Source of the DNA: Escherichia phage mEp013
Length of the DNA: 52,961 nucleotides
Sequence record: PP180002
Strand: one strand, 5' to 3'
The notes beneath the pieces were generated by a model, which saw nothing but the letters and a program-made list of their open reading frames with translations, was not told the DNA's origin and did not search any database. How positions within the stretch are numbered: position 1 is the stretch's first letter; the number at the start of each line of letters is the position of its first letter. The translations under genes were made by a program, and so were the position numbers. Shown here one piece after another: positions 3,860 through 44,092 of the stretch.

Positions 3860-5275
3860 TTAAAAAGATGCGTTATTCTGATTGTTTCGTTGGTTAAAAC
3901 GGCTTGTGCGATGATTCATTGACTGAATGCACGCGGCAGCGGCCCTGCCCTGGTCGCATGGTATGATGTTGCCGTTATCGTCAAACCGCTGGTAGACAGT
4001 CCCCGTTTTCCCGTGACGGTTTTTCGATACAATGATTTCCATATATTCGCGGGCAACAGACTGCTCATCGTAGTAGCCATCGCGGTACACCATGATGATC
4101 CTGTCAGCGTCCTGTTCAAGATTGCCGGAATCACGAAGATCCGAATTGTTAGGACGCTTGTTCGGTCGTTCCTCAACGCGGCGGGATAATTGCGCCAGCG
4201 CCAGCACCGGTACGCGCAATTCTTTCGCCATCATCTTCAACGACCATGACAATTGCCCTACGGCGAGATCATGACGTTCAGCCTTAGCCAGCTTCATCAA
4301 CCCGATGTAGTCAATCATTACCATACCCATGTTGGGATGTTCCTGTTTCATCCGTTCCGTGGTGGCGCGTATTTCCTCAACCGTTAACTGCGACGCGTCA
4401 ACGATCCACACATCAAGATTAGCAAGTGCGCTCATACCCTGGCCGACATGCGCCCACCCCTCATCATCAAGTTTTACCGGATTGCGCAGGCAGTCAGTTG
4501 ATAAATTTCCAGCGCCAGCTATGGCGCGCTCAGTCATCTGATCGAGCGACATTTCAAGCGTGAAGAACAAAACGCCAACCCGCTGATCCTTGCTGCCAGG
4601 GTAAGGGCGTTCAGCAGCAGCGCGGGCAATTGCCAGCGCCAACGCAGATTTACCAGACCCAGGGCGTCCGGCGAGAAGCACCAGATCAGTAGCGTTAATG
4701 CCGCCTAACATTTCGTCGAGTGGTTCTATCCCTGTTTTGATGTTGTCAGAATTGACACCGCACTCCATGCGCTTACTTAAAACTTCTGTGTACTCCTGGA
4801 CAGCATCGCGCAACAGAACAGGGATAATCTTGTCTTTAGTTACCTTTAATTTTGAATACCGGGAATCAAAATCTTTCATCGTCTCTTTGACGACCTCAAG
4901 CGTCCCCGTCTCCAGTTTGTAGCGCATATCGTCGATGAGTTCTAACATCTGCCGACGCTGGTGCTCTTCACGTAATAGCTGTGCGTATCCCTTCAGGTTG
5001 GCAGCAGAAGGACACGATCGCGCCGTTTGCATCAGCGGTACAAAATTTTCGTTGCCAATCTCATCACCAACCAGCAAGGCGTCGATAAGATTCCTGTTTC
5101 TGGCTTGCGCCCTGATAATTTCAAACGCACGTTTATACAGCGGAATCGTGAACACTTCAGGATCAAGAGTGGCGAGAACATCTTGCGCGTTAGGAGTTAG
5201 GCCGCCTAACAGCAGCCCGCCGATAACTGACGCTTCACGTTCCTGCCGTAGTGAGTTTATTTGCTCAGTTACCAT
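3860..5275 (-). CDS. replicative DNA helicase, DnaB family
   Basis: 471 aa; DnaB N-terminal signature SVIGGLLLG and Walker A GRPGSGKS. Confidence 0.9.
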   Translation of the reverse strand: MVTEQINSLRQEREASVIGGLLLGGLTPNAQDVLATLDPEVFTIPLYKRAFEIIRAQARNRNLIDALLVGDEIGNENFVPLMQTARSCPSAANLKGYAQLLREEHQRRQMLELIDDMRYKLETGTLEVVKETMKDFDSRYSKLKVTKDKIIPVLLRDAVQEYTEVLSKRMECGVNSDNIKTGIEPLDEMLGGINATDLVLLAGRPGSGKSALALAIARAAAERPYPGSKDQRVGVLFFTLEMSLDQMTERAIAGAGNLSTDCLRNPVKLDDEGWAHVGQGMSALANLDVWIVDASQLTVEEIRATTERMKQEHPNMGMVMIDYIGLMKLAKAERHDLAVGQLSWSLKMMAKELRVPVLALAQLSRRVEERPNKRPNNSDLRDSGNLEQDADRIIMVYRDGYYDEQSVAREYMEIIVSKNRHGKTGTVYQRFDDNGNIIPCDQGRAAAACIQSMNHRTSRFNQRNNQNNASF

Positions 5276-6445: not shown

Positions 6446-6982
6446 TCATTGACAGCAAACAATCTCTTTATATGCCTCTTCTACCATGTCGAATACTTCC
6501 GGCCTGTAATAGAAAAACTCATTGCTGCCATCAAATTTTACAGGAAAGTTAATTTTATAATTGCTGAAATATTTATGCATCGTGCTTTCTAGTTTATGTA
6601 TATTTTCGGTTGACCCTTCTAACGTTTTCACGATACACAAATCAGGGATTCTAACGCCTGCTTTATGTGCGCTTTTTAATATTTCATTTCTTCGCTCGTT
6701 ATCCTTAACGCTTACACCGATTTTCATTTGTGTAGGTAATTCCAGATCATCAACCATGATGTAAAGTTTGCCATACTCATAACTAAGGAAACCGTATTTC
6801 GCGCATTTTGGGCAGCCGCGCCCGCGCTTAAGGTCGCTAGGAGTAGCCGACCACTCATGATCACAAACCTTACAGCGGCATGATACTTTTGTTTTGCAAT
6901 TGATAATTTCTCCCAACACTTCAACATTGGGGTTAATTCTTGAGATAGCGGCAACTTGCTCCTTATGAGTTAACTTGCGCAT
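6446..6982 (-). CDS. zinc-ribbon plus GIY-YIG-like (T5orf172/MUG113-type) protein, single-repeat paralog of 39479..40789
   Basis: One LTHKEQVAAI..C.C..C.HEW..GCPKC repeat then GKLYIMVDD..KIGVS..ERRN..EFFYY domain shared with the 436-aa protein; ATG at 6982 has RBS AGGAG. Confidence 0.7.
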   Translation of the reverse strand: MRKLTHKEQVAAISRINPNVEVLGEIINCKTKVSCRCKVCDHEWSATPSDLKRGRGCPKCAKYGFLSYEYGKLYIMVDDLELPTQMKIGVSVKDNERRNEILKSAHKAGVRIPDLCIVKTLEGSTENIHKLESTMHKYFSNYKINFPVKFDGSNEFFYYRPEVFDMVEEAYKEIVCCQ

Positions 6983-7115
6983 TGTCATAGCTCCTAAAAA
7001 CGCATCAGACGCGCTACAACGCAAAAAATCCCACCGCGTAACCCACTTGTAAGGGTGCAGTGTCTTTTTTGCGCCAGAAGCGCAATCAGGTGGCTAATTT
7101 TTGATTTACAGACTG

Positions 7116-35831: not shown

Positions 35832-36512
35832 ATGATCCATGTTCGTACCGGACAATTTGCGGCTGTGGTGAACGGTAAGCGCTATAAATTTAACCCGTGT
35901 TTCGCTGCGATGGCTAAAATCGGTAATGACAGGGAGCTTGTGGAATGTTTCGCAACCATCCACGGTAGCAAATACCCTTCACGATTACCTACAGATCCAG
36001 ACCTCCGCAATCGCATTATGGCGCGGTGTTATGGTGAGATAGTGCAAACGTCTATACACATCCTGAAATGTTGCTCAGACGACGAAACAGGCCCGTTATT
36101 AGGCGAATGCTGGTTCACTCCTTCGGGTAAATTGAGATTAAAACCGGGAATAATGCCAGTTGATGATGTTATTACGCTGGCGCAACACTGCATGTACCAC
36201 GGTTTAATTGGTGACAGCCCTGAAGAGGTCGCAAGCGATAGACGGGAAGGTGAATACAAACCAACGTTCGACATACTGGAGTTTGTTTATTCTGCCGTTG
36301 CTCACCTGGGGTTATCAGAATCAGAAGCGTGGAATATGACAATGACCGGATATAGGGCCGCTGTGCGTGCTAAAACGCCACCAGAAGCAAGAAGCAAACA
36401 AAAACGACCAAATGTATTGCTTGATAAAAAGGCTTATGACGATGGAATGAGGGAGGCTATGGAGGTGCTGGAAAGACTAAAAAAATCCAAAGAACAAAAA
36501 GCCCGGAATTAG
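35832..36512 (+). CDS. tail assembly chaperone (G/GT-like)
   Basis: Position immediately upstream of tape measure region; RBS AGGG. Confidence 0.55.
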   Translation: MIHVRTGQFAAVVNGKRYKFNPCFAAMAKIGNDRELVECFATIHGSKYPSRLPTDPDLRNRIMARCYGEIVQTSIHILKCCSDDETGPLLGECWFTPSGKLRLKPGIMPVDDVITLAQHCMYHGLIGDSPEEVASDRREGEYKPTFDILEFVYSAVAHLGLSESEAWNMTMTGYRAAVRAKTPPEARSKQKRPNVLLDKKAYDDGMREAMEVLERLKKSKEQKARN

Positions 36513-36526
36513 CCGGGCCTTTCTTT
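36496..36526. terminator. bidirectional terminator between convergent genes
   Basis: GCCCGG-AATTA-GCCGGGC flanked by A-run and T-run. Confidence 0.6.
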
Positions 36527-36899
36527 AATTGAAATCTTTGACGGCAGCGCCTGGTGAGCTGTGATTAATTGTGCCATATACAGTCTTCGCCTTGCTGCGA
36601 TCTTTCCATTCTTTCAGAATACAATTATCAAACTTCGCTATAACCCTTGAAGGGGATAACTCTTCAACATCCATGTATGTAAAACCTACCGTACTTGTTA
36701 CCGACCACCATACGTGATAGCTGTACTTGCCGTCATACTCAATCCTTTGAGGCTCACCCATGATTTTAGTAACCTGCTCGCAAGTCATTCCAGCCTGCAA
36801 CTTGTTATCAGCCAACCTAACAAAATCAGTTGATCTTGCACACCCAGCGATCGACAGAGCAATAACACCAATCAGCGCGGCTTTTAATACGTTTTTCAT
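36525..36899 (-). CDS. lipoprotein with BamE/SmpA-OmlA-like domain (moron)
   Basis: Signal peptide with lipobox LSIAGC; LQAGMTCEQVTKIMGEPQ BamE-like motif; ATG at 36899 inside ORF 36525..37097. Confidence 0.6.
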   Translation of the reverse strand: MKNVLKAALIGVIALSIAGCARSTDFVRLADNKLQAGMTCEQVTKIMGEPQRIEYDGKYSYHVWWSVTSTVGFTYMDVEELSPSRVIAKFDNCILKEWKDRSKAKTVYGTINHSSPGAAVKDFN

Positions 36900-36910
36900 A
36901 ATTAGCACAT

Positions 36911-37090
36911 TTAAGCCATAAACCAGCGGATTAAAGCATCCAGCGCACCCCAGCCAGGGATGAACGCCTTTTGACCTGCGATCTGCATCATGAGCATTGC
37001 ATTTGGAGCTTGCCAGTAAAGCACGGTCATGTGCACACAGATTGCAAGAGCAATGGCAACCACCAGGATTTTGTTGATTAAACTTTTCAT
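36911..37090 (-). CDS. small membrane protein (59 aa, moron)
   Basis: Hand-translated MKSLINKILVVAIALAICVHMTVLYWQ...; RBS GAGGTG; 11 nt upstream of lipoprotein gene. Confidence 0.45.
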   Translation of the reverse strand: MKSLINKILVVAIALAICVHMTVLYWQAPNAMLMMQIAGQKAFIPGWGALDALIRWFMA

Positions 37091-37216
37091 AATTCACCTC
37101 GTTTTTGTTTGATTTCTTAACTGTTCCCTATGGCTTCTTTATACAAAATGGAGTCGCTGAAGTAAAGCCATTTTGTATAAAATAGAGACACAGATCACAA
37201 AACCGGAGTAGCAATC

Positions 37217-39424
37217 ATGACCACAAATGTAGGCACGATCGAATATACCGTTGATGCAAAAACCGAACGGTTGCTCGTAGCTCAACGCAAGGCGGAAGAC
37301 TCGTTTGATAAAATCGAGCAGGGCGCTAAACGTACCGATAAATCAGTTCGGTCACTTAACACCACGATAAGTAATTTATCCAAAGCTGTGAACATTGGAA
37401 TGATGGTCATGGCTGCAAAAAAATTCCTGGAGATCGCAGATAACGTGAATCTGCTACGCGCCAGGGTGACGCGACTATCGAGTGGCATTGCTGACGCAAA
37501 ATCGAATTTTGACGGGATTATTCAGATATCGAATCGCACAGGGATGAGTGTTCAAAGCACCGGGAAGCTGTGGGAAAGCCTAAAGGCCAGCCTACAGGAT
37601 ACCAGTGCGACAAGTCAGCAGGTATTGCAACTTACCGACTCGCTTCAGAAAATAGGCCGTATCGGAGGTAGCTCCTCAGATGAAATGTCAAACGCACTTC
37701 GCCAGTTAGGACAATCCCTGACGGGTGGCATTGTTCGCGCGGAAGAATACAACTCTGTGCTTGAAAACATGCCCGAAGTATGGCGACGCGTCGCTAAACA
37801 AATGGGGATCTCGATGGGTGAACTTCGCGCAAGAATGCTTGATGGTAAGCTCACCGCCGAGGATGTTACCAACTCAATTCTTGCTGGCGCAGAAGATATA
37901 GAGAAGGACTTCGCACAGCTGCCAACAACAACAGATCAGGCATTTAACGAGCTAAAAAACAACTTCGATCTGTTAATTGACACGCTAAACCAAACGCTTG
38001 GAGTGTCTGATTTGGTAGTTGCTGGTATACAGGCTGTTTCTAGTGAAGTTCAGATATTATCAGGTTGGTTTAAGTCCCTGGCGAGCGATAGCACGTCATT
38101 AACTGATAAATTGTGGCTATTGGCTGGGGCGTTCGAGGGTATAGTACCTGGGCTTAGTTTGTTCCGCTCTCAAGCGAAACAGGTTGGATGGTTTGGCGAT
38201 GGAGATCAGGAGTTTGTTTCTACGCTTCCCACGGGGCAAGCTGGTGTAAGTCGCATAACATTTAAGCCTCAACCTGGTGGTAGAGGTAAGAACGGAAAAG
38301 GTAAAAAATCCGGCAAGTCAGAAGCCGAACGCCTTGCGGAACAGGGTGTACGCGTTTCAGATACATATAACGAAGATTCAGCAGCAATGCGTAAAGCGCT
38401 TGAGTCACAAAAAGCTCTGGATGCTGCATTTAAAGCCGGGAAAATAACCATGCTTGAATACAAAGGCGCAATGAAGGGAATTGGTGATGAATTGCGCGAA
38501 ACTCTAGCAGAAATTAACGACCCGATCAATAGTCTGCAAGAAAAATGGGACAAAATGATTCCATCACTGGATCAGAAACGCGGCGAGCTGGACCCAATAC
38601 AGCAGGCGCAAAATGAATGGACCATACGCAAGCAAATGCTGGAAGATCTTGGCGCTACCGAGCAATACATGAAGGAGCAAGAAAGAGCGCACGCACAAGA
38701 AATGCTATCCCTTGAATGGGAGCGATATAAAGCACAGTCAATGAGCTACAAACTATTGGGTGATACCGTTGATGCAATGGGAGGATCTGCAACAAATGCG
38801 CTTGTGGGCCTGGTTAACGGCACTCAAAGTTGGCAGCAGGCGCTGGCTAACATTGGCAATACAATCCTTTCCTCCGTTATCGGTACACTTGTTCAAATGG
38901 GTGCTGAATGGGTTAAACAGCAATTGATCGGTGAGGCCGCCAGCGCTGCGGCAACAGCTAAAGCACTAGCCGAGGCTACTGCATTAGGATCTGCGTGGGC
39001 CACTCCTGCATACCTGGCAAACGTTGCCACGATGGGCGGAGCGGCGACCGTGGGGGGCACGAGTCTTGCCACTGGTGTGGCTGGGGCTAAGGCGCTTGGG
39101 CTTGCTGGCGCTCGTTATAACGGCGGTGCGGTTAATGGTGGCAATCTTTATAGGGTCGGGGAAGGTGGAAAAATGGAGCTGTTCACCACTACTGACGGGA
39201 AACAGTACATGATCCCCGGAGAAAACGGGCGTATCACTCCTAATCGCGACCTTGTCAGCGGTGGTGGCGTCACAATCAATAGTCCGATCACCATTAACAC
39301 TACGAATGGCTTCAGTGAGGAAGACTCAAGACGTCTGGAAGACACCATGAAGCGCGTTGCTATGGGAGTAGTTAGAGAGCAAAGTTCAAGGCCCGGAGGA
39401 CTTATCCAACCGCGAAGAAAATAA
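37217..39424 (+). CDS. H: tail tape measure protein
   Basis: 735 aa, Gly/Ala-rich C-terminal region, position before M/L/K/I/J. Confidence 0.85.
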   Translation: MTTNVGTIEYTVDAKTERLLVAQRKAEDSFDKIEQGAKRTDKSVRSLNTTISNLSKAVNIGMMVMAAKKFLEIADNVNLLRARVTRLSSGIADAKSNFDGIIQISNRTGMSVQSTGKLWESLKASLQDTSATSQQVLQLTDSLQKIGRIGGSSSDEMSNALRQLGQSLTGGIVRAEEYNSVLENMPEVWRRVAKQMGISMGELRARMLDGKLTAEDVTNSILAGAEDIEKDFAQLPTTTDQAFNELKNNFDLLIDTLNQTLGVSDLVVAGIQAVSSEVQILSGWFKSLASDSTSLTDKLWLLAGAFEGIVPGLSLFRSQAKQVGWFGDGDQEFVSTLPTGQAGVSRITFKPQPGGRGKNGKGKKSGKSEAERLAEQGVRVSDTYNEDSAAMRKALESQKALDAAFKAGKITMLEYKGAMKGIGDELRETLAEINDPINSLQEKWDKMIPSLDQKRGELDPIQQAQNEWTIRKQMLEDLGATEQYMKEQERAHAQEMLSLEWERYKAQSMSYKLLGDTVDAMGGSATNALVGLVNGTQSWQQALANIGNTILSSVIGTLVQMGAEWVKQQLIGEAASAAATAKALAEATALGSAWATPAYLANVATMGGAATVGGTSLATGVAGAKALGLAGARYNGGAVNGGNLYRVGEGGKMELFTTTDGKQYMIPGENGRITPNRDLVSGGGVTINSPITINTTNGFSEEDSRRLEDTMKRVAMGVVREQSSRPGGLIQPRRK

Positions 39425-39478
39425 TTTATTAATTTGATCTTACGCCCGCAAGATAATGATGTATCCTGCGGGCTTTGC

Positions 39479-40789
39479 TTACGCTGCTTTTATAATTTCT
39501 TCATACTTATCTTCCACCATGCTAAAAACTTCTGGTCTATAGTAGAAAAATTCGCAACTACCATCAAATTTTACGGGGAAGTTAATTTTGTAATTACTAA
39601 GTTTTTTGTGTATCGCGCCCTCTAGTTCAAAGATATTTTGTGTCGGACCTTCTAATGTTTTTACGATATGTAAATCAGGAATTGTCACACCAGCCTTATG
39701 TGCACTGCTTAGTATTCTATTCCTTCGTTCGTTTTCCTTAACACTTACCCCTACTTTCATTAGCGTTGGCACTTCCATATCGTCAACCATGATATAAAGT
39801 TTGCCGCGTTCGTAGGATAAAAAACCTTTTTTCGCACATTTTAAACATCCGCTACCTCCTTTAAGTTTTTGCGGCGTGGTTCTCCACTTATAGCCACACA
39901 CTTTACATAGACACGATACTTTGGTTTTGTTTCCTGTTATCTTACCAACAACTTTGATATTAGGGTTGATGTTGGCAATGGCTTTTATTTGTTCTTCATG
40001 CGATATTCTTCGCGCTTGTGCTCTTTTTGATGCCGCGCACTTCGGGCAACCAGTGCCTTTTTTAAGGCTGGCTGGAGTAGTTAACCATTCATGACCGCAA
40101 TACTTACAGCTGCATAACGTCCTTGTAGTATTGCTAATAATTTTCCCTAACACCTCAACGCCAGGGCTAGTTTTCGCAATAGCTGTAACCTGTTCTTTGT
40201 GTGATAATTTCATCTTCCCTGAACATTTCGGGCAGCCAGTACCATGCTTGAGATTATTTGGAGTGGCTGACCATTCATAATTGCAAATCTTACATTTGCA
40301 TAATACGTTTTTTAAACTTGAAGTAATTTTTCCCAAGATTTCAATATTGCTGTTAACCTTCGCAATGGATGCAACTTGTTCTTCATGCGTTAATCTTCTA
40401 TCTGTACATTTCGGGCAACCTTGCCCGATTTTAAGTGTTTCAGGTCTAGCCATCCATTCGTGATTACAAACCTTGCAATGGCATAATACTTTTGTTTTAT
40501 TATTAATAATTTTCCCTAATACCTTAACATCAGGATTAACTTTAGCAATAATTGCAATCTGTTCTTCATGTGGTAATGCTCGTTTTTGCGCTCTTTTTGA
40601 TGCCGCGCACTTCGGGCAACCAATACCACGCTTAAGATCAGCAGGTCTACCAAACCATTCGTGATTACAAGTTTTGCAGCAGCATGATACTTTTTCCATA
40701 TTCCCGGTAATTACCCCTATCACCTCGATGTTGGGGTTAACTTTTGCAATGGCGGCAACTTGTTCTTCGTGTGTTAATTTTTTTGTCAT
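39479..40789 (-). CDS. five tandem zinc-ribbon repeats plus GIY-YIG-like (T5orf172/MUG113-type) C-terminal domain
   Basis: Five ~62-aa repeats (L.HEEQ.A.IAKVNP...C.C..C.HEW...GCPKC) then GKLYIMVDD..KVGVS..ERRN..EFFYY domain; paralog of 6446..6982. Confidence 0.7.
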   Translation of the reverse strand: MTKKLTHEEQVAAIAKVNPNIEVIGVITGNMEKVSCCCKTCNHEWFGRPADLKRGIGCPKCAASKRAQKRALPHEEQIAIIAKVNPDVKVLGKIINNKTKVLCHCKVCNHEWMARPETLKIGQGCPKCTDRRLTHEEQVASIAKVNSNIEILGKITSSLKNVLCKCKICNYEWSATPNNLKHGTGCPKCSGKMKLSHKEQVTAIAKTSPGVEVLGKIISNTTRTLCSCKYCGHEWLTTPASLKKGTGCPKCAASKRAQARRISHEEQIKAIANINPNIKVVGKITGNKTKVSCLCKVCGYKWRTTPQKLKGGSGCLKCAKKGFLSYERGKLYIMVDDMEVPTLMKVGVSVKENERRNRILSSAHKAGVTIPDLHIVKTLEGPTQNIFELEGAIHKKLSNYKINFPVKFDGSCEFFYYRPEVFSMVEDKYEEIIKAA

Positions 40790-40866
40790 AATACCGCTCC
40801 TACATTATTCCGTTTCATGAATAATCATTACTAACCACAATTGTGTTATTAATTACATGAATAAAT

Positions 40867-41037
40867 TTACTCAAATCTTGTATATCCTCTTTCAATTTTC
40901 CCTCCGTGTACACTTCTTGCAAACACCGCGTCAGTATACCTGAAAAATGGACATGTATATGTATCCACTTTGCTATCCATATATTTTAGCACCCATGCCA
41001 TGCGTTTTACATTGCTTTTATTTGCCTGGCTTTTCAT
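40867..41037 (-). CDS. hypothetical protein (56 aa)
   Basis: Hand-translated MKSQANKSNVKRMAWVLKYMD...; RBS GGAGGAAAA. Confidence 0.4.
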   Translation of the reverse strand: MKSQANKSNVKRMAWVLKYMDSKVDTYTCPFFRYTDAVFARSVHGGKIERGYTRFE

Positions 41038-41055
41038 TTTATTTTCCTCCGCAAA

Positions 41056-41148
41056 TCACAACCTGCCGTTTCTTGCTATGTAGCTGCGAGCAAACATCAC
41101 CTGCCAGATGTTCCAGATCTCCCTCCAGGTGAATTTATCGTCATCCAT
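41056..41148 (-). CDS. hypothetical small protein (30 aa)
   Basis: Hand-translated MDDDKFTWREIWNIWQVMFARSYIARNGRL; RBS GAGGTG. Confidence 0.3.
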   Translation of the reverse strand: MDDDKFTWREIWNIWQVMFARSYIARNGRL

Positions 41149-41156
41149 ATTTCACC

Positions 41157-41411
41157 TCATTTATGTGCCCCTTTTACGCCACAGTGTCGGTTGTATTCCA
41201 GATGGTCAATAATTAACCACATCTTTAAATCTTCGCTGAATAACCGCCAATCTGGGTTGATGTCAAATTTATAACCGTAGCCATCGCGTAATTTTTTGGG
41301 GTTGGCCTCTTTTTTCAGGAAAGCGTTTAATAAGGCTTTGCCCTTTTTGATGATCCGGTCCTGTGCGTTTTTCTGTGCTTTCAGGTTTTTACCAATCGCC
41401 ACCAATTTCAT
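41157..41411 (-). CDS. hypothetical basic protein (84 aa)
   Basis: ATG at 41411 with RBS GGGGTGG inside ORF 41157..41429. Confidence 0.5.
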   Translation of the reverse strand: MKLVAIGKNLKAQKNAQDRIIKKGKALLNAFLKKEANPKKLRDGYGYKFDINPDWRLFSEDLKMWLIIDHLEYNRHCGVKGAHK

Positions 41412-41429
41412 AATCCACCCCGCAATCAA

Positions 41430-41585
41430 TTAGTTGACCACTTTCAGGAAGAAATCACGGTATTCGTCTTCTTTTGCGTTCATCATGAACTGACCGTATT
41501 TGAATGCGTCATCAAAGCCTTTGACTATCGCCACCTCAACCTGCTCGAATGCTTTGTTTAGCATTACCACTACATAGCGTTTCAT
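41430..41585 (-). CDS. hypothetical protein (51 aa)
   Basis: ATG at 41585 with RBS GTGGGG inside ORF 41430..41636. Confidence 0.4.
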   Translation of the reverse strand: MKRYVVVMLNKAFEQVEVAIVKGFDDAFKYGQFMMNAKEDEYRDFFLKVVN

Positions 41586-41754
41586 ATTGTCCCCACTTTG
41601 TTGGTACTGTTTTCTCTTCTTGCTTTCTGTATACATCTTGTTACGTCCTGCGTGAAGCCATTTCGTAAACTGGGTATAATTCTTGTGACGAAGTTCTCAT
41701 TTTCGCGTAGAAGCGCGTAAAGATGTATGCAATATGTAACTTATAGGGGGAATC

Positions 41755-42108
41755 ATGCCGGAAGTTTTCAGATGGACGCCGCAAAGAAGCTACAGCGTGA
41801 CCAGGGAACCAAATGTGTCGGTCGTTAAACTTGGTGATGGTTATGAACAGCGCCAGGCGAAAGGGATTAACACGTTGCTTGATAGCTACACCCTGGTTTT
41901 TAAAGGCAGTAGCGCAGGATGCGGTGATAGTGGGAACGTGGCGATCCAGGCAGAAGCATTCTTGAGGGCGCGCGGCGCTGTCGAGGCTTTTTACTGGTCG
42001 CCGTCTATGGATGGAGTGCAAAGGCTTTTTGTTTGCCGTAGCTGGAGTATGACAAAGGACGGGCCTGTATACACGCTAAACGCAACATTTGAGCAAGTTG
42101 TCAGCTAG
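41755..42108 (+). CDS. M: minor tail protein, lambda gpM-like
   Basis: 117 aa; matches lambda M pattern as recalled (FRWTP, KLGDGY.QR, F..A.GA...FYW.P, FEQVV). Confidence 0.8.
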   Translation: MPEVFRWTPQRSYSVTREPNVSVVKLGDGYEQRQAKGINTLLDSYTLVFKGSSAGCGDSGNVAIQAEAFLRARGAVEAFYWSPSMDGVQRLFVCRSWSMTKDGPVYTLNATFEQVVS

Positions 42109-42119
42109 TGGGGGTTAAT

Positions 42120-42305
42120 ATGTACGGGACTTGTGTAGTGGACAAAACTGACGCTTTTACATTGTTTGACGACTACGAGATCAACGACCTTACTGTAAAG
42201 GCTGACAATGGCGATACCTGGTATCTTCATGATGTTGGTGACGGGTATGTGGGATGCAGATCCAGGGAAGGCAAGGAGGTTTTATTTTTGGTTGATGGCG
42301 TATAA
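42120..42305 (+). CDS. hypothetical protein (61 aa)
   Basis: ATG at 42120 with RBS GTGGGGG. Confidence 0.4.
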   Translation: MYGTCVVDKTDAFTLFDDYEINDLTVKADNGDTWYLHDVGDGYVGCRSREGKEVLFLVDGV

Positions 42306-42308
42306 TAA

Positions 42309-42336
42309 CAACCCCGCTTCGCGCGTGGTTTTCTTT
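42309..42336 (+). terminator. terminator-like hairpin (imperfect copy of the J terminator)
   Basis: AACCCCGC-TTCG-CGCGTGGTT (one stem mismatch) plus TTTTCTTTT; part of 36-bp repeat shared with 49833-49868. Confidence 0.4.
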
Positions 42337-42380
42337 TAGTAGTTAATATGCATCAAACTCATTGGGTGAGCGTGCGCCAT

Positions 42381-42473
42381 ATTATTGGCTATCGCCGCCC
42401 AGTCCCAATCGGCAGCATGAACGCCAAATACTATCAGTCCCATTATTATTAGCGCCAAAACTTCTATTTTCAT
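42381..42473 (-). CDS. hypothetical small hydrophobic peptide (30 aa)
   Basis: Hand-translated MKIEVLALIIMGLIVFGVSCCRLGLGGDSQ; RBS AGGTGA. Confidence 0.3.
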
Positions 42474-42483
42474 AATCTGTCAC

Positions 42484-42732
42484 CTATAAGTTATCACGCA
42501 GGTAATTAACGCCCTTATCAGTGACGAATGAATGGTTGACCTGGTTTTCATCCGTCATGATGACGAATAACTTTTCCTGTAGGTATTTCGCTTTCGGGTA
42601 CAGTGTTAAACAGACCTGGTACAGTATCCCGCGCTCAATCAGCAAATCAATAAATTCGTGCTCATGATAACCGATGAGGCGGGCGGCCTGTTTCAACGTG
42701 TACACATAATCACCGTGATTGCGCCGCGCCAT
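42484..42732 (-). CDS. hypothetical protein (82 aa), possible HTH
   Basis: RBS AGGTGGGA. Confidence 0.5.
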   Translation of the reverse strand: MARRNHGDYVYTLKQAARLIGYHEHEFIDLLIERGILYQVCLTLYPKAKYLQEKLFVIMTDENQVNHSFVTDKGVNYLRDNL

Positions 42733-42741
42733 ACTCCCACC

Positions 42742-43092
42742 TTATTTATCGAAAGCAGATAGGTTGTCTATACAGAAATCTTTTGCAGCTTTTTCGTATT
42801 CGCGTTTTGCTTGCGGATCGTCTGCCGGGAAACCTTTTGCGTGTATTTCACCAGGGCAAGACTGATCCATAGAATCAGCAAATTCAACATTGACGTTAAA
42901 GTTAATATCTTTCGGGTTCATCTCTTCCACCTTATCAGGTACTTGGACCGGAGTAATAACAAAATCACGAGCGTTAGACCAACAGCGAAGTAATTCGCGA
43001 CCTTCATCACGCGCCGCAGTATATGTGTCAAATAGGCCCATGCATTCCCATTCACATTTACCAGTCCACACGTCTAGGCTGTATTTTTGCAT
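42742..43092 (-). CDS. hypothetical protein (116 aa)
   Basis: RBS GAGAGG. Confidence 0.5.
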   Translation of the reverse strand: MQKYSLDVWTGKCEWECMGLFDTYTAARDEGRELLRCWSNARDFVITPVQVPDKVEEMNPKDINFNVNVEFADSMDQSCPGEIHAKGFPADDPQAKREYEKAAKDFCIDNLSAFDK

Positions 43093-43104
43093 TTTGTTAA
43101 CCTC

Positions 43105-43260
43105 TCATTTGACAGGTTCTATCCTGTACCCCAAAACGCGTTCATCTTCAGCAAGTAAAAGCGCGTCATTCAGTGCCTCGCCTTCATCCTTATACAGAGC
43201 TACAGTCATTTCCCTGCCATCCGCAAGGAACACCGTTAACCTCCACACCTTATCAACCAT
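43105..43260 (-). CDS. hypothetical protein (51 aa)
   Basis: ATG at 43260 with strong RBS GGAGGTG inside ORF 43105..43335. Confidence 0.45.
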   Translation of the reverse strand: MVDKVWRLTVFLADGREMTVALYKDEGEALNDALLLAEDERVLGYRIEPVK

Positions 43261-43306
43261 CTCACACCTCCGCGCCATTTTGTTAACCATGCTTCCTTTT
43301 GAGTAC

Positions 43307-43335
43307 AATATACATATTGTAAAAAGCGCTATCAA
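43307..43335 (-). promoter_or_regulatory. sigma70-like promoter for the minus-strand cassette (TTGATA-17-TATATT)
   Basis: On minus strand: TTGATA, 17-nt spacer, TATATT, ~40 nt upstream of the cassette's first start. Confidence 0.55.
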
Positions 43336-43387
43336 CCGTTTTGGTATGATTTAGCGTGACGTCGATCACAAATTACAAGGTGATAAA

Positions 43388-44092
43388 ATGCGCAGCATAC
43401 CTACAGAAATGATTATTGATTCCGTGGATGCCGGAGTCGGCGCGGTAATTGACTTGTTTGAATTAGACCTCACGCCCCTTGGTGGCGAGGTTATCCGCTT
43501 CCATTCCGGCGCTAATGGCTATTACGGCCCGGTTATCTGGAAGGGAGTGGCTTACAACAGCTACCCAATCGAGGCAACTGGCTTCGAAATGAAAAACGAA
43601 GGCGTTTACTCACGCCCCCAAATGGTAGTAGCCAACATTGGCGGGCTAATCACCGGGATGAACAACGATTTCAATGACCTGCGAGGAATGAAGGTTACGC
43701 GCCGCCAGGTGGAAGTAAAATACCTGGATGCCATCAATTTCCCCAACGGCAACCCGGATGCAGATCCATCTATCGAGGCAGTATCTTTTTACGTCGTTGA
43801 GGCGATGAGCGAAGAAACAGCCGACCAGGTGCAATATGAACTGTCAACGCCAATTGATGCTGACAAGGCGGTTATCCCGGGGCGCACAATTCTCGCTGAC
43901 GTTTGCCAGTGGCAATATCGCGGCGACGGTTGCAGATACAGTGGCGGCCCCGTAGCTACTGACAAAGACGAGCCAACAAGTGATCCAAAGCTGGATAAAT
44001 GCAGCCACCGCCTGAGCGGTTGCCGTTTGCGTTTTCCGCGTCCTAATCCGTTACCAATTTCCTGTTTCCCAGGATCTAGTAAGGTAGGTTGA
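43388..44092 (+). CDS. L: minor tail protein, lambda gpL-like
   Basis: Matches lambda L as recalled (TGM..D...L.G..V.RR, YRGD.C.YSG, DKCS..LSGC..RF). Confidence 0.85.
   Translation: MRSIPTEMIIDSVDAGVGAVIDLFELDLTPLGGEVIRFHSGANGYYGPVIWKGVAYNSYPIEATGFEMKNEGVYSRPQMVVANIGGLITGMNNDFNDLRGMKVTRRQVEVKYLDAINFPNGNPDADPSIEAVSFYVVEAMSEETADQVQYELSTPIDADKAVIPGRTILADVCQWQYRGDGCRYSGGPVATDKDEPTSDPKLDKCSHRLSGCRLRFPRPNPLPISCFPGSSKVG

Follow-up and report, generated by a model that had tools for sequence, protein, structure and literature searches.

Between the tape-measure gene and gpM of Escherichia phage mEp013 (sequence record PP180002) lies a block of five minus-strand genes. This block is probably an operon in a long-lived moron slot of the mEpimmI phage group, combining a conserved core with a variable end that gathers homing-endonuclease genes. 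The largest of the five, a gene for 436 amino acids (aa), is putatively of that kind: its product has tandem zinc ribbons followed by a C-terminal T5orf172 nuclease domain, and in the few genomes that carry it the gene comes with its own allele of the adjoining tape-measure 3′ end. All coordinates are positions in the window, the whole stretch of 52,961 nucleotides (nt) that was analysed, and the relatives compared are six phages and four Escherichia coli prophages. A sequence-only reading of the window had described the block as a cassette inserted into the tail operon and suggested that its cargo serves defence or exclusion.

Five genes opposite the tail operon

The five minus-strand open reading frames (ORFs; Table 1) are genuine genes. 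Every one has a Shine-Dalgarno sequence 5-9 nt upstream of its ATG. From the 51-aa to the 436-aa gene the intergenic gaps are 18, 8, 18 and 77 nt, the 30-aa gene starting 8 nt past the 84-aa stop codon, and with such short gaps and their Shine-Dalgarno sequences the five ORFs fit a single operon. Nei-Gojobori counts in the minus-strand frame, over up to 10 related genomes, indicate purifying selection on all five, with ratios of nonsynonymous to synonymous divergence (pN/pS) between 0 and 0.39. The ratio is 0.02-0.06 for the 51-aa ORF (pS up to 0.70), 0.03-0.29 for the 84-aa ORF, 0-0.15 for the 30-aa ORF (pS up to 0.97; nine relatives), 0.08-0.39 for the 56-aa ORF (eight relatives) and 0.22 for the 436-aa ORF (against mEp021 only); gpM, for comparison, gives 0-0.11. 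The GC content of the block is 0.36-0.42 (0.37-0.48 by another estimate), versus about 0.49-0.52 in the flanking tail genes, and no plus-strand ORF within it exceeds 63 aa. The genes of 51, 84, 30, 56 and 436 aa proposed in the sequence-only reading are thus borne out by ORFs, Shine-Dalgarno sequences and pN/pS together. That the five are chance antisense ORFs, in a non-coding spacer or in part of a plus-strand tail gene, deserves almost no credence: selection in the minus-strand frame and the Shine-Dalgarno sequences exclude such an artefact, which is further contradicted by Pfam and PHROG matches and by the existence of over 1,000 clusters of homologous proteins.

Two of the ORFs could be read from further upstream. 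The 84-aa ORF extends to a TTG at 41429 (90 aa) and the 51-aa ORF to an ATG at 41636 (68 aa). Insertions or deletions of 1-2 nt in relatives within 41586-41636 rule out the 68-aa start, which leaves the 51-aa ATG as the true one. The 51-aa and 84-aa ORFs share a frame in mEp013, mEp021 and mEp515, with one TAA (41430-41432) between them; read-through of this stop codon was rejected, since in MagusPhagus and mEp044 the ORFs lie 17 or 20 nt apart.

At the tape-measure end the block is closed by a terminator-like hairpin with 12-nt arms (92% complementary) and a 6-nt loop. Its folding energy is -18.2 kcal/mol on the plus strand (z = -3.5) and -23.2 kcal/mol on the minus strand (z = -5.4). The gpM side holds no significant hairpin (z = +0.6 to +0.7). 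The earlier description of a block bounded by hairpins therefore stands at one end and fails at the other.

The cassette is presumably transcribed from the conserved 169-bp divergent region ahead of the 51-aa gene and gpM. Within it, 75 of the 115 positions from 41640 to 41754 are invariant in 11 genomes. Its identity to the most diverged relatives is 0.81-0.83, set against synonymous divergence of up to 0.6-0.7 in the flanking genes. The TATAAT box reported upstream of gpM is present at 41675-41680 (plus strand) and invariant in the 11 genomes. The promoter scan did not call it, and its -35 element (GTGAAG) is poor; with TATAAT occurring 15 times in the window where 39 occurrences are expected, a lone copy is not significant. 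The invariant blocks also include a palindrome, TTTTCGCG-N6-CGCGTAAA, at 41700-41721. An Rfam scan of 36000-44000 gave sub-threshold noise only, and a tandem-repeat finder gave nothing relevant.

Table 1. Features at the tape-measure/gpM junction of mEp013
Feature	Position	Strand	Remarks
Tape-measure gene	37217-39424	+	735-aa ORF
Tape-measure 3′ end co-inherited with the 436-aa gene	39107-39424	+	distinct allele in carriers
Bidirectional terminator-like hairpin	39444-39473		between the convergent tape-measure and 436-aa genes
436-aa ORF	39479-40789	-	putative free-standing homing endonuclease
T5orf172 / GIY-YIG-fold nuclease domain	39482-39811	-	residues 327-436, C-terminal
Five tandem zinc-ribbon repeats	39824-40783	-	residues 3-322; ~62 aa each; CxCxxC...CxxC; predicted DNA-binding array
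56-aa ORF	40867-41037	-	no assigned function; basic, isoelectric point (pI) 9.8; Shine-Dalgarno GGAGGA
30-aa ORF	41056-41148	-	no assigned function; Shine-Dalgarno GAGGTGA
84-aa ORF	41157-41411	-	ATG at 41411; putative toxin-like protein of the RelE/ParE superfamily; basic, pI 9.9; belongs to the slot's core
51-aa ORF	41430-41585	-	ATG at 41585; first gene of the operon; Shine-Dalgarno GGGGA; candidate partner or antitoxin
Divergent control region	41586-41754		169 bp between the 51-aa ATG and the gpM ATG; conserved
gpM	41755-42108	+	PF05939 minor tail protein

An accessory slot with a conserved core and a variable end

Six Nus-dependent temperate E. coli siphophages of the mEpimmI group (mEp021, mEp515, mEp044, mEp010, mEp554 and MagusPhagus) match the region at 86-93% identity. 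All six of these phages carry a minus-strand cassette at the tape-measure/gpM junction, as do all four of the E. coli prophages inspected. Even the more distant tail modules of Salmonella phage S135 and Erwinia phage Eho49, with gpM 63-67% identical, have a single minus-strand ORF there, of 79 or 76 aa (L020, 3676-3915, and L021, 3712-3942, respectively), which is related to no cassette protein of mEp013. Because the slot is filled in all relatives examined, and by an unrelated ORF in S135 and Eho49, the junction is an old accessory slot and not the site of a recent insertion in mEp013. Synteny thus narrows the sequence-only reading: the cassette is inserted relative to lambda, but its presence is not particular to mEp013. 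Its description as an accessory island within the tail operon fits an opposite-strand, low-GC block with its own terminator hairpin. The paper on the mEpimmI phages (PMC11893012) does not discuss the cassette.

The conserved core is the 51-aa/84-aa gene pair, which adjoins gpM. All ten relatives inspected have the 84-aa gene, and nine have both genes; the exception is the prophage of strain UMNK88, which has no 51-aa gene. Among 5,426 complete E. coli genomes, 33 contain the 51-aa gene and 35 the 84-aa gene. The cassette of the O157:H7 LSU61 prophage holds little beyond the pair. Variation is concentrated at the tape-measure end. This end is empty in mEp554 and MagusPhagus; it holds a ~60-aa ORF in mEp044, mEp010 and mEp515, a 49-aa ORF with or without an HNH_3 endonuclease gene in mEp554 and mEp515, and the 436-aa gene in mEp013 and mEp021. 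The HNH_3 gene of mEp515 (PF13392, 8e-20; L002, 6093-6599), which mEp013 lacks, lies inside the tape-measure/gpM cassette. The 30-aa and 56-aa genes, which lie between this pair and the 436-aa gene and are assigned to the same gpM-side layer of the slot, also come and go: the 56-aa gene is missing from mEp021, from LSU61 and from two further carriers of the 436-aa gene (L018 and L019), and the 30-aa gene is missing from prophage PRO_A.

In lambda, the tape-measure (H) and M genes are adjacent, and lambdoid phages carry morons, for example lom and bor of lambda and gp15 of HK97. Like these, the mEp013 block is an extra transcription unit between lambda-adjacent genes, with a deviant, lower GC content and a terminator hairpin of its own (39444-39473). 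It differs from them in being a multi-gene operon on the opposite strand, kept across a whole phage group, whose variable end gathers nuclease genes and for which the promoter scan found no sigma-70 match on the minus strand. Every component is of a known kind, and the genes already stand in public records as hypothetical proteins.

A putative homing endonuclease beside the tape-measure gene

Domain searches place the 436-aa protein in a published architecture. Pfam returned DUF4379 (2.4e-26, 92 bits, in five stretches), CapR (3e-19, 69 bits) and, over residues 331-420, T5orf172 (PF10544; E 6.6e-5, 23.8 bits against a cut-off of 20). The PHROG matches, phrog_559 (1e-86) and phrog_681 (5e-83), are both annotated as endonuclease. 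The zinc-ribbon repeats are mutually 49-59% identical. Each is modelled as a helix, three strands and a helix, with a predicted local distance difference test score (pLDDT) of roughly 80-94 per block within the repeats, and the best Foldseek match in the PDB is 6yxx_E2, itself a DUF4379 protein. The C-terminal domain has the alpha/beta fold of GIY-YIG nucleases. In 36 homologs, down to 34% identity, Y332 (in GKLYIM), R355 and E413 (in EFF) are at least 90% conserved, and K345/G347 and E390/H394 are further conserved residues. From their motif pattern, Y332, R355 and E413 would be the catalytic Tyr, Arg and Glu.

Homologs of the 436-aa protein form over 1,000 clusters, E. coli being the main source, and range from 240 to ~720 aa through differing numbers of repeats; many bear the name GIY-YIG nuclease family protein. 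Family members were recovered by tblastn from 231 phage records, many of which are of virulent phages; a single genome can have up to five copies, and they are often annotated as homing endonuclease. T5orf172 homing endonucleases have been described in which CapR/DUF723/DUF4379 zinc fingers recur like ‘beads on a string’ and the CapR-type repeats are the modules that bind DNA; their genes adjoin essential genes, including the tape-measure gene, and are often co-located with other homing-endonuclease classes (Barth, Dunham & Seed 2023, PMC10448857). Intron homing endonucleases, too, have CapR-like repeats for which a DNA-binding role has been proposed (PMC12350094).

The closest counterparts are gp174 of vibriophage ICP1 and its relatives (PMC10448857). 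They share with the 436-aa protein the C-terminal T5orf172 domain and N-terminal tandem zinc-finger repeats of variable number, and with its gene a free-standing position adjoining the tape-measure gene at a locus also used by another class (HNH, in mEp515). In contrast, the 436-aa gene belongs to a temperate coliphage and sits on the strand opposite the tail operon, within a pre-existing accessory operon; its product's activity and target are predicted, and mEp013 has another paralog, apparently fixed, in its replication module. In phage group II introns, homing endonucleases combine three to five CapR-like domains with an EDxHD/Vsr nuclease (PMC12350094) and likewise use zinc-ribbon domains of ~60 aa, related to CapR/DUF4379/DUF723, as the proposed specificity module. 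The 436-aa nuclease differs in being of the T5orf172/GIY-YIG and not the Vsr type, and in being free-standing, outside introns. The GIY-YIG homing endonucleases of T4, the Seg proteins and I-TevI, have a zinc finger with helix-turn-helix/NUMOD elements instead of a zinc-ribbon array, and their similarity to the 436-aa protein is very low (8-16%). The 436-aa protein can be described as a putative homing endonuclease of the CapR-repeat/T5orf172 architecture.

The distribution of the gene is patchy. It was found at the tape-measure/gpM locus in four genomes: mEp013, mEp021, a metagenomic contig (L018) and a draft E. coli genome (L019). Megablast found no match to it in the 5,426 complete E. coli genomes, and neither five related phages nor any of the 82 matching E. 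coli genomes have it. Its presence or absence is therefore a polymorphism, beside an essential gene, between phages otherwise 87-93% identical. The segment common to the four carriers has the same boundaries in each (39107-40814), and over it mEp013 is 87-88% identical to the other three. On the right, the gene sits exactly at the start of the ~60-aa ORF of mEp044 and mEp515, whose place it takes; a remnant of that ORF, ATG-TAG at 40805-40800, survives directly upstream of the GGAG of the 436-aa gene. In mEp021 (L001, 4145-5479) the copy is collinear and in frame, with two stops in repeat 3, and is annotated as two coding sequences. These stops are either early decay or an error of SOLiD sequencing or assembly.

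The left boundary lies inside the tape-measure gene. Over 39107-39268, mEp013 matches genomes without the 436-aa gene at only ~70%, and homology between mEp021 and mEp044 breaks just 60 nt ahead of the tape-measure stop codon. In the four carriers the tape-measure protein ends in ...AMGVV[RK]EQSSRPGGLIQPRR[KR]*, followed by GCCCGCAAG...TGCGGGC. In all nine non-carriers it ends in ...SRPGGM/ILQPRRK*, with different Arg codons, followed, whatever comes next, by another hairpin in the same place, AAAACCCCGG...CCGGGGTT. A conserved end in genomes without the gene and a diverged one in those with it look like a homing site and its immune allele, and the candidate homing site is the tape-measure 3′ end and terminator sequence of the genomes without the gene.

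From these features a homing cycle can be proposed. The five CapR/DUF4379 zinc ribbons would read a long DNA site, which the C-terminal T5orf172 nuclease would cut. When a carrier phage meets a related phage or prophage without the gene, the enzyme would cleave the conserved tape-measure 3′ end or terminator of the latter, and recombinational repair would then copy in the 436-aa gene together with its cut-resistant tape-measure end and terminator. The second class of homing endonuclease (HNH_3) in the mEp515 cassette, the fixed boundaries of the carrier segment and the distinct alleles all point to the behaviour of a homing-endonuclease gene.

An HNH endonuclease gene also occurs in mEp021, between gpI and gpJ (L001, 9976-10542). 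The gpI (44769-45299) and gpJ (45313-49827) genes of mEp013 are adjacent, with no HNH gene between them.

The small genes and the alternative readings

Defence or exclusion, as suggested by the sequence-only reading, would make the whole cassette a lysogeny-expressed anti-phage system, for instance with the 51-aa/84-aa pair as a toxin-antitoxin system for abortive infection and the nuclease degrading incoming DNA. We regard this as unlikely. No PADLOC-DB v2 family matches any of the five cassette proteins (E ≤ 0.01), and PADLOC and NCBIfam scans of all of them gave nothing meaningful. By its architecture the largest gene, which fills 60% of the block, is of the selfish homing-endonuclease type, and its patchy spread takes in many virulent phages. 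Apart from the 84-aa protein, whose standing as part of a toxin-antitoxin system is doubtful, nothing in the cassette resembles defence.

The 84-aa protein is a member of Pfam ParE_like (PF24732). Sequence and profile searches of its family against PDB chains gave no significant match to solved toxins, and hhalign comparisons with approximate sequences of RelE, YoeB, YafQ and ParE were likewise not significant. An AlphaFold2 model built from a shallow alignment is poor (pLDDT 51). An exhaustive profile search found only 10 representatives of the family among 1.84 billion proteins, so that no deeper alignment is possible. The 51-aa protein is very highly conserved, and its only match is phrog_29810 (6e-36), a family with no assigned function. 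No relatives of it were found outside the mEpimmI group. It matches no Pfam, NCBIfam or PADLOC family, belongs to no known antitoxin family and has no recognisable DNA-binding domain.

In common with RelE/ParE type II toxin-antitoxin systems, the 84-aa protein is small, basic and of PF24732, with a small gene of the same operon 18 nt upstream. Unlike in those systems, the 51-aa protein lies outside the antitoxin families and is dispensable in at least one prophage. In the UMNK88 prophage (L015, 3365-3790) the 51-aa gene is precisely deleted and its upstream region fused to the 84-aa ATG, with the ParE_like gene intact (92% identical, pN/pS 0.08). Alleles of the 84-aa protein fall into two classes, of about 90-99% and 63-67% identity, a division that the 51-aa protein does not show. 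PF24732 proteins elsewhere have no constant partner: members in the virulent phages Sortsne and phiKp_21 and in two metagenomic contigs lie in arrays of small genes, and a search for a conserved partner in other contexts found unrelated neighbours. The loss of the 51-aa gene, the unmirrored alleles and the unrelated neighbours argue against a classical toxin-antitoxin pair, and the loss and the neighbours also against defence. No gene of the cassette always accompanies the 84-aa gene as an antitoxin would, the 30-aa and 56-aa genes each being missing somewhere as well. Thus the toxin-antitoxin reading is a weak, minority possibility. The preferred reading, itself weak, is that the 84-aa protein is a toxin-like effector, perhaps acting as mRNA interferase or gyrase poison, with the 51-aa protein as a possible modulator.

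The 56-aa protein matches no Pfam, PHROG, NCBIfam or PADLOC family, and the 30-aa protein has no family match. A gene directly downstream of a distant ParE_like homolog (L022, 2814-3071) encodes the motif VHGGK(M)IER, which is shared with the 56-aa protein (blastp E 0.12, not significant).

A different account would take the 436-aa protein as a domesticated, non-mobile member of its family, a sequence-specific nuclease or DNA-binding regulator with accessory functions in replication and recombination or in competition with related phages and satellites, and would ascribe its patchiness to modular recombination. In its favour, the replication module contains a paralog, located upstream of DnaB (3860-5275) and a 372-aa gene. 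This 192-aa ORF (6446-7024, minus strand) has one zinc ribbon and a T5orf172 domain (25.1 bits) and matches the last 188 residues of the 436-aa protein at 66% identity. The site is fixed and is also filled in many mEpimmI-like prophages: most homologs of 60% identity in related prophages occupy it (L007-L011), and strain 2017C-4173W12 (CP030768) has a homolog there and a tail cassette without the 436-aa gene. There are precedents for domestication among relatives of homing endonucleases, such as PLE CapR and ICP1 Odn (PMC10448857), and a role in recombination has been suggested for T5orf172 (PMC7824862). Some members of the family may therefore be stable and possibly domesticated. Against this account, the copy at the tail locus is rare (found in four genomes and absent from the 5,426 complete E. 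coli genomes), replaces an unrelated ORF, is linked to a distinct allele of the adjoining essential gene and, with two in-frame stops in mEp021, is possibly decaying. Rarity, ORF replacement, linked allele and possible decay are typical of the invasion cycle of a homing endonuclease, and domestication of the tail-locus copy appears quite improbable.

Three points nonetheless count against an operon in a moron slot that gathers homing-endonuclease genes. The distinct tape-measure end of the carriers could be the product of ordinary mosaic recombination from a diverged lineage. Neither the promoter scan nor manual inspection of 41586-41754 found a minus-strand sigma-70 consensus. Finally, the stability of the paralog in the replication module may mean that the family is housekeeping or regulatory and not purely selfish.

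A bolder scenario is a long shot. Here the 51-aa/84-aa pair would be a new type of phage-borne RelE-fold module, distinct from classical toxin-antitoxin pairs, whose toxin-like protein tolerates loss of its partner. Lying antisense in the tail operon, it would be switched off or on at the lysogeny-to-lysis transition by colliding, late anti-terminated transcription, with the palindrome/TATAAT region serving as switch. The zinc-ribbon nuclease, for its part, would be a competition weapon that cuts the tape-measure gene end of rival gut mEpimmI phages.

The tail operon of mEp013 is interrupted by two further minus-strand islands that are conserved in relatives. One (36525-37097), just ahead of the tape-measure gene, is a 190-aa ORF (phrog_18614). 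Another (42336-43335) lies between gpM with a 65-aa ORF on one side and gpL on the other; it encodes a 45-aa hydrophobic ORF, an 82-aa KilAC/ANT-domain protein (PF03374), a 116-aa protein (phrog_38567) and a 76/51-aa protein (phrog_29559).

Specialists should find no surprise in the block as an operon with homing-endonuclease genes at its variable end. Its value lies in what it offers for further work. The 51-aa/84-aa pair is an uncharacterised, highly conserved core gene set of a phage group, and the conserved tape-measure 3′ end and terminator provide a concrete, predicted candidate for a homing site. The putative nuclease would extend the T5orf172/CapR-repeat class of homing endonucleases from virulent phages such as ICP1 to a genetically tractable temperate phage of E. 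coli. In a coliphage group prevalent in the human gut, the tape-measure/gpM junction is a stable accessory slot and probably also a landing pad for homing-endonuclease genes.

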